A stretch of 64,000 nt of DNA, taken from the sequence record PQ249395; one strand, 5' to 3'. Below, piece by piece: positions 33,181 through 33,474 of the stretch. The notes beneath the pieces were generated by a model. It worked only from the letters and a program-made list of their open reading frames with translations, was not told the origin of the DNA and searched no databases. A program made the position numbers and the translations under genes. The DNA is from Escherichia phage Pu-Krd-SF1. Each line of letters begins with the position of its first letter. Position 1 is the stretch's first letter.

Positions 33181-33474
33181 ATTGAAGTCTATGGAATTCC
33201 AGATGAAGTAGGTCGTTGTCCTGGATGTCAATCAGTTACAAAACTTCTAAAGGAGCTCAATGCTCCTTTTACTTTCTATAAAGTTCTTACAAATAATGGT
33301 AAGATTGAGTATGATCGTCCACTGATTGTATCTCTTGCTAAACGAGCTGGATTCACATCTCTTAACATTCGTTATCCAGTCATTTTCATCAATGATTCTA
33401 GACAAAAGAACATTAAACACTTCAAAGAAACTCTCATTTCACTTGGATATGATAGAGATATCATAGAAGACTAA
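33181..33474 (+). CDS. nrdH: NrdH-like glutaredoxin-like protein (start codon uncertain)
   Basis: IEVYGIPDEVGRCPGCQSV with CPGC redox motif; no in-frame ATG after the upstream stop. Confidence 0.6.
   Translation: MEVYGIPDEVGRCPGCQSVTKLLKELNAPFTFYKVLTNNGKIEYDRPLIVSLAKRAGFTSLNIRYPVIFINDSRQKNIKHFKETLISLGYDRDIIED

Follow-up and report, generated by a model that had tools for sequence, protein, structure and literature searches.

The nrdH gene of Escherichia phage Pu-Krd-SF1 is an ordinary gene, already known and previously annotated, with a probable GTG start that falls within the 3′ end of the preceding ORF. We examined it in a stretch of 64 000 nucleotides (sequence record PQ249395; one strand, 5′ to 3′), referred to here as the window, the source genome of which is a Tequatrovirus (T4-like). 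Sequence signals, conservation and curated annotation together indicate that translation very probably starts at the GTG at 33151, ten codons upstream of the ATT at which a first-pass annotation had placed the opening of the reading frame. The features on which the argument turns are as follows.

33151–33474, plus strand: nrdH coding sequence in its best delimitation, 107 codons from a GTG start to a TAA stop (33472–33474), based on translation, identity to T4, GenBank annotation and Pfam and phrog matches.
33151–33153, plus strand: probable nrdH start codon GTG, 30 nt 5′ of the ATT and the sole in-frame ATG, GTG or TTG from −48 to the CxxC motif.
33136–33140, plus strand: Shine–Dalgarno sequence AAGGA, 10 nt before the GTG, where the upstream ORF encodes Gln-Gly.
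32868–33179, plus strand: upstream ORF of 103 residues (phrog_2749), which shares its last 29 nt, in a different frame, with the beginning of nrdH; absent from T4.
33181–33183, plus strand: ATT codon (Ile11 of the 107-residue protein), the first residue of strand β1, without an upstream Shine–Dalgarno sequence and aligned to residue 2–3 of T4 NrdC (1ABA/1AAZ).
33217–33228, plus strand: codons of the redox-active CPGC motif, Cys23 to Cys26, from sequence and translation.

Part of the first-pass description is borne out by the sequence. A glutaredoxin-fold frame (IEVYGIPDEVGRCPGC..., IEVYGIPDEVGRCPGCQSV...) closes with TAA 33472–33474 and is recognized by Pfam family PF00462, the upstream ORF (32868–33179) stops at TAA 33177–33179, codon 33181–33183 is ATT and the closest in-frame ATG (33103) lies 78 nt 5′, within the preceding gene. 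The frame does not open at 33181, however, as TAA 33177–33179 is in frame with the upstream ORF and not with nrdH, the frame of which remains open for 53 codons farther 5′, from 33022, and is closed by TAG 33019–33021. That the TAA happens to fall one base before the ATT creates the illusion of a frame opening there. The claim that the gene has no canonical start codon fails on the in-frame GTG 33151–33153 with its AAGGA Shine–Dalgarno sequence, the bacterial code counting GTG among its standard starts. The suggestion of a non-ATG start was correct as far as it went, but the codon is very probably GTG 33151 and not ATT 33181. The lesson is that the start codon seemed to be missing because ATG alone was sought and the stop of another frame was taken as a boundary.

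The strength of the Shine–Dalgarno signal was calculated as the best duplex between the 22 upstream bases and the 3′ end of 16S rRNA. The duplex before GTG 33151 reaches −5.4 kcal/mol, a level (−5 or better) attained by 11% of the positions sampled across the window, compared with −0.9 kcal/mol before ATT 33181. The values before two in-frame candidates farther upstream, GTG 33022 and ATG 33103, are +0.4 and −1.5 kcal/mol, respectively. Ribosomes directed by AAGGA 33136–33140 would initiate at GTG 33151–33153 and would produce a 107-residue protein, M-EQNSNLKNK-IEVYG..., so that the predicted N-terminus of the window-type NrdH is (f)M-EQNSNLKNKIEVYGIPDEVGR; the first 29 nt of nrdH would then be shared, in a different frame, with the 3′ end of the phrog_2749 ORF. 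A literature search for the N-terminus of NrdH (N-terminal sequencing, ribosome profiling or proteomics, T4 NrdH included) returned no report, and Petrov et al. (2010) list nrdH as an auxiliary gene only.

We compared approximately 60 loci with protein identities from 100% down to 29%. A canonical start codon is found 1–10 codons before the I/V-E-I/V-Y-G strand in all of them except for a fusion in phage PM2. Its position and identity follow the genus: GTG at −30 in window-type Tequatrovirus and in Mosigvirus, GTG at −15 in T4-type genomes and locus L013, GTG at −21 in Gaprivervirus, Dhakavirus and Kanagawavirus, TTG at −6 in loci L034, L035 and L071, and ATG at −3, −6 or −12 in all more distant genera, where the protein typically begins M-K-I-E-I-Y-G and the start overlaps the stop of the previous gene as ATGA. 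In the upstream ORF, the codon that supplies this GT is, depending on the genus, CGT (Arg), TGT (Cys) or AGT (Ser), and the GT together with the following G is unchanged throughout; an invariant GT-G beneath a varying amino acid suggests that selection maintains the GTG as part of nrdH. The stretch from the Shine–Dalgarno sequence to the GTG is likewise invariant in all eight aligned Tequatrovirus and Mosigvirus sequences, which differ by up to ∼15% over the 170-nt segment. The position of the ATT is occupied in homologs by ATA, ATC, GTT, GTA or GTG, with a canonical start upstream in every such case.

In a Dhakavirus-like contig (L056; IMGVR_UViG_2974741249_000001, locus ∼440–520) nrdH carries an apparent internal deletion that joins IEIYGIPETVMD directly to DKPLIVSL and eliminates the CxxC motif; this copy is probably a deleted or defective allele.

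T4 nrdH (formerly ORF 55.7; NP_049686, ‘NrdH glutaredoxin’, 102 residues) provides the reference. As in the window, it is located between nrdG/55.8 and 55.6 and is followed by the same terminator, and the window protein is 100% identical to T4 NrdH from the Ile onward (99 of 100 positions over the BLASTP alignment). Identity, synteny (nrdG, 55.8, nrdH, 55.6) and the combination of GTG and AAGGA all place the window gene in the T4 nrdH orthologous group of the Tevenvirinae. The RefSeq start of T4 nrdH is a GTG at −15 behind AAGGA, with a duplex of −6.1 kcal/mol (sequence: aaggaatagttGTGAAACAAAATAAGATTGAAGTC). The T4 leader comprises five residues (M-KQNK), with the GTG 15 nt before the ATT, whereas that of the window comprises ten (M-EQNSNLKNK), with the GTG 30 nt before it. 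T4 is without the 103-residue ORF, and its GTG lies 2 nt after the 55.8 stop, whereas the GTG of the window is embedded in the 3′ end of that ORF. The T4 nrdH frame is closed three codons before the GTG, which leaves the GTG as the sole canonical start in T4-type genomes. The stretch homologous to T4 starts at window position 33175. A search with the junction segment matched 659 phage records, of which 419 cover it fully (window-type) and approximately 240 have no match before query base 85 (window 33175) and are T4-type, without the upstream ORF.

The alternative with most in its favor is initiation at AUU 33181 by termination and re-initiation after UAA 33177–33179, either alone or beside initiation at the GTG, to give a 97-residue protein. 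The geometry of the junction fits this idea: the upstream stop lies 1–2 nt before the ATT or ATC in Tequatrovirus, Gaprivervirus and Dhakavirus, as termination/re-initiation would predict and as may be held against the GTG, and it overlaps the ATT as AT-TGA in Mosigvirus and Kanagawavirus, while the homologous position in distant relatives is a classic ATGA stop/start overlap, from which coupling at the nrdH start appears to be ancestral. Further points that count against the GTG are its distance of 10 nt from the Shine–Dalgarno sequence, close to the upper limit of usual spacings, disagreement among annotators in some records and an N-terminal extension that varies in both length (5–10 residues) and sequence. 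This variability, together with a Ser-to-Leu change in the extension of phage Sf23 that is synonymous in the upstream ORF, suggests that the extension peptide is weakly constrained.

Initiation at AUU 33181 is nevertheless unlikely. AUU is a very poor initiation codon, against which IF3 discriminates, and the duplex of −0.9 kcal/mol amounts to no Shine–Dalgarno sequence in front of it. In the T4-type genomes (∼240 records), which are without the 103-residue ORF, no reading frame terminates beside the ATT, yet GTG and AAGGA are retained. The invariance of GT-G against a varying overlapping amino acid also argues against this route, as do loci L034/L035 and L053–L055, in which GTT or GTG takes the place of the ATT and a canonical start is located at −6. 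infC and pcnB are genes of the non-canonical AUU-initiation type; nrdH does not share their character, with an in-frame GTG and Shine–Dalgarno sequence 30 nt upstream and an ATT that is not conserved.

A narrower version would confine the effect to phages that carry phrog_2749: NrdH would be coupled to that ORF, some ribosomes would re-initiate on AUU 33181 to yield two N-terminal isoforms and the two proteins would cooperate. We regard this as a slim prospect. A minimum-free-energy fold pairs the Shine–Dalgarno/GTG region (33135–33150) with nrdH codons at 33201–33218 and, if real, this structure (33135–33218) could tie initiation of nrdH to ribosomes translating the upstream ORF; its z-score of only −1.56 is not distinguishable from chance, and masking of the Shine–Dalgarno sequence and GTG by mRNA structure was rejected on this basis.

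Initiation at GTG 33151 was also weighed against two kinds of longer product: a protein begun farther upstream in the nrdH frame, at GTG 33022 or ATG 33103/33052, and a phrog_2749–NrdH fusion produced by +1 ribosomal frameshifting close to the overlap, which would resemble the fusion annotated in phage PM2. We consider both to be very unlikely. The nrdH frame is indeed open for 53 upstream codons in the window, phage PhAPEC2 is annotated with a long form and both ORFs share one frame in phage PM2. The upstream starts, however, lack a Shine–Dalgarno sequence, and in VR26-type and T4-type genomes a stop closes the frame 2–3 codons 5′ of the GTG, which shows that a long extension is not conserved; the forms starting at GTG 33022 or ATG 33103 were rejected on both counts. 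A programmed +1 frameshift was likewise rejected, as no slippery or shift-prone motif in the overlap is shared among genera and the single fusion, that of PM2, occurs at an A7 homopolymer in the one genome of that species in the collection.

In Pectobacterium phage PM2 itself (NC_028940, ∼41901–42500; loci L042/L072) the phrog_2749 ORF and nrdH, homologous to window 32868–33474, lie in one frame and are annotated as a single 199-residue ‘glutaredoxin’. The GTG is retained but is out of frame, with the A7 run (∼42 200) between it and the ATT; a run of eight A residues would restore the frame of the GTG at −21 and a TAA stop at the usual position. The fusion, seen in one genome of the species, may reflect mis-sequencing of the homopolymer or may be a genuine gene fusion. 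If genuine, it would hint at a functional link, and suggest cooperation, between the phrog_2749 protein and NrdH.

The weakest proposal, that the start was mis-sequenced or the gene is a pseudogene, a true ATG having disappeared through faulty assembly or sequencing, draws on the ATG found 1–4 codons before the conserved strand in distant homologs and is exceedingly improbable, as the junction is identical in at least five genomes at 100% identity and recurs in ∼419 independent phage records, which excludes a sequencing error, T4 with its reference-grade annotation likewise has a GTG, and the nrdH ORF is intact and encodes a protein 100% identical to T4 NrdH from the Ile. The first-pass annotation had held that an ATG at the equivalent position in homologs would imply such an error; ATG does occur, at −3, −6 or −12, but only in the distant genera, where it represents an evolutionary shift of the start site and not an error in the window.

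Public records largely agree with initiation at GTG 33151. This codon is annotated as the nrdH start in most of the GenBank records checked that have a window-type junction; the records annotating a GTG start are Pu-Krd-SF4, RPN226, Ge15, F31, e11/2, PST, G2469 and KMB38, and in phage Ge15 a ribosome-binding site is annotated at AGGA, the bases equivalent to the Shine–Dalgarno sequence of the window. Across T4-like genomes as a whole the nrdH start is annotated inconsistently, as GTG, TTG, an upstream ATG, an internal ATG and one fusion. The departures include the following.

Sf23 (L075): TTG start, created by a C-to-T change.
JS10 (L018): internal ATG at +30, which would remove strand β1.
Q7622 (L019): upstream ATG at −39.
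PhAPEC2 (L077): upstream ATG, giving a long form of 140 residues.

The practical value of the present comparison is that the invariance of GT-G and the T4-type deletion, which keeps both the GTG and the Shine–Dalgarno sequence, support consistent annotation of the GTG.

The protein belongs to the glutaredoxin/thioredoxin-fold superfamily, with a PF00462 (Glutaredoxin) score of 24.1 bits for the 97-residue form against a cut-off of 22.9 (E = 4e−5), a CxxC motif after β1 and a cis-proline loop before β3. It also matches phrog_22 (‘thioredoxin domain’) with E = 5e−16. The cis-Pro motif YPVIF corresponds to residues 75–79 of the 107-residue protein (65–69 of the 97-residue form). Both cysteines and the glycine of CPGC are invariant in a nine-sequence alignment, and Cys13, Cys16, Pro66, Val67, Ile68 and Phe69 (numbering of the 97-residue form) are invariant in nine homologs.

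The best match among solved structures is T4 NrdC (1ABA and 1AAZ; ‘T4 thioredoxin’), with E of ∼5e−4. The two proteins share a short N-terminus, an x-V-Y-G strand, a CxxC motif at the start of helix 1 and the cis-Pro motif, which is YPVIF in the window protein and MPQVF in NrdC. The similarity is distant, and the window protein differs in having CPGC instead of CVYC and a longer C-terminal region. Their genomic settings also differ: the window gene is beside the anaerobic ribonucleotide reductase genes nrdD/nrdG, whereas NrdC is beside nrdA/nrdB. Bacterial NrdH-redoxins (E. coli/Corynebacterium) are alike in being small glutaredoxin-fold CxxC proteins encoded next to ribonucleotide reductase genes. 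The hallmarks of NrdH-redoxins in E. coli and Corynebacterium are a C-V/M-Q-C active site and a WSGFRP(D/E) motif; the window protein, unlike them, has a CPGC active site and no WSGFRP-like motif in its translation. The NCBIfam search gave no match to TIGR02194 (NrdH-redoxin, the class Ib ribonucleotide reductase reductant) at E ≤ 1, its only match being a YruB-type glutaredoxin-like model for which the score of 16 bits falls below the cut-off of 88.6, and the PDB search returned no NrdH-redoxin structure at E ≤ 1, with T4 NrdC giving the best matches. The RefSeq note on T4 NrdH states that it ‘has glutaredoxin activity’. The likeness to NrdC, the missing TIGR02194 match, the CPGC active site and the lack of WSGFRP together argue for a small dithiol glutaredoxin rather than an NrdH-redoxin. 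Judged by its sequence, then, the window protein is an NrdC-type glutaredoxin within the T4 nrdH orthologous group and not a class Ib NrdH-redoxin, and it is predicted to work as small dithiol glutaredoxins do; the gene owes the name nrdH to history or position. Two Aeh1-like Aeromonas phages (L069 and L070) encode a second, NrdC-like glutaredoxin (MLEVYGFDPLELECKPCLNAKRLL...) directly upstream of nrdH, ∼270 nt from the match. The stop of this gene overlaps the nrdH ATG, an arrangement that identifies the pair as tandem glutaredoxin paralogs.

The upstream ORF matches phrog_2749 with E = 1e−48 and is annotated as hypothetical in GenBank records; searches of Pfam and NCBIfam gave no match. The ORF, located between the 55.8 homolog and nrdH, occurs in 418 phage records and in several genera of the Tevenvirinae, and a large protein search returned four homologs. 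An AlphaFold model of the protein (pLDDT of 81.6) consists of a helix plus a β-sheet, for which a Foldseek search against the PDB returned no match below E = 2.

The region is the counterpart of the T4 stretch from nrdG to gene 55. A sequence search with the 781 bases around nrdH found them at 100% identity in five Escherichia phages (Pu-Krd-SF3 to SF7) and at 95% identity or more in several hundred Tequatrovirus genomes. The gene order is a homing-endonuclease ORF, nrdG (a radical-SAM activase; Pfam Fer4_12, E = 7e−49), a 55.8-like membrane ORF, the 103-residue ORF, the glutaredoxin ORF and homologs of 55.6 and 55.5. Two elements downstream of nrdH bear on its transcription.

33478–33502, plus strand: intrinsic-terminator-like hairpin GGGCCC-TCT-GGGCC (hairpin part 33478–33492) followed by a T-rich run, found by scan directly 3′ of the nrdH stop and kept in T4.
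33574–33602, plus strand: σ70-type promoter-like site, TTTACA, 17 nt and TATTAT with an extended TG; 10 of 12 consensus positions match (consensus match only).

The promoter-like site lies in front of the 55.6 homolog, which follows nrdH and begins at 33633. With the terminator-like hairpin after its stop and this site before the 55.6 homolog, nrdH is probably the last gene in its transcription unit.

The homing-endonuclease-like ORF (276 residues) occupies window positions 31238–32068 between nrdD and nrdG. It contains a NUMOD3 motif, a weak match to the I-TevI DNA-binding domain and an N-terminus that appears GIY-YIG-like by eye, and its TGA overlaps the nrdG ATG (32065) as ATGA. The same position is occupied by the HNH endonuclease mobC in T4 and by no endonuclease in Pu-Krd-SF4 and Ge15.
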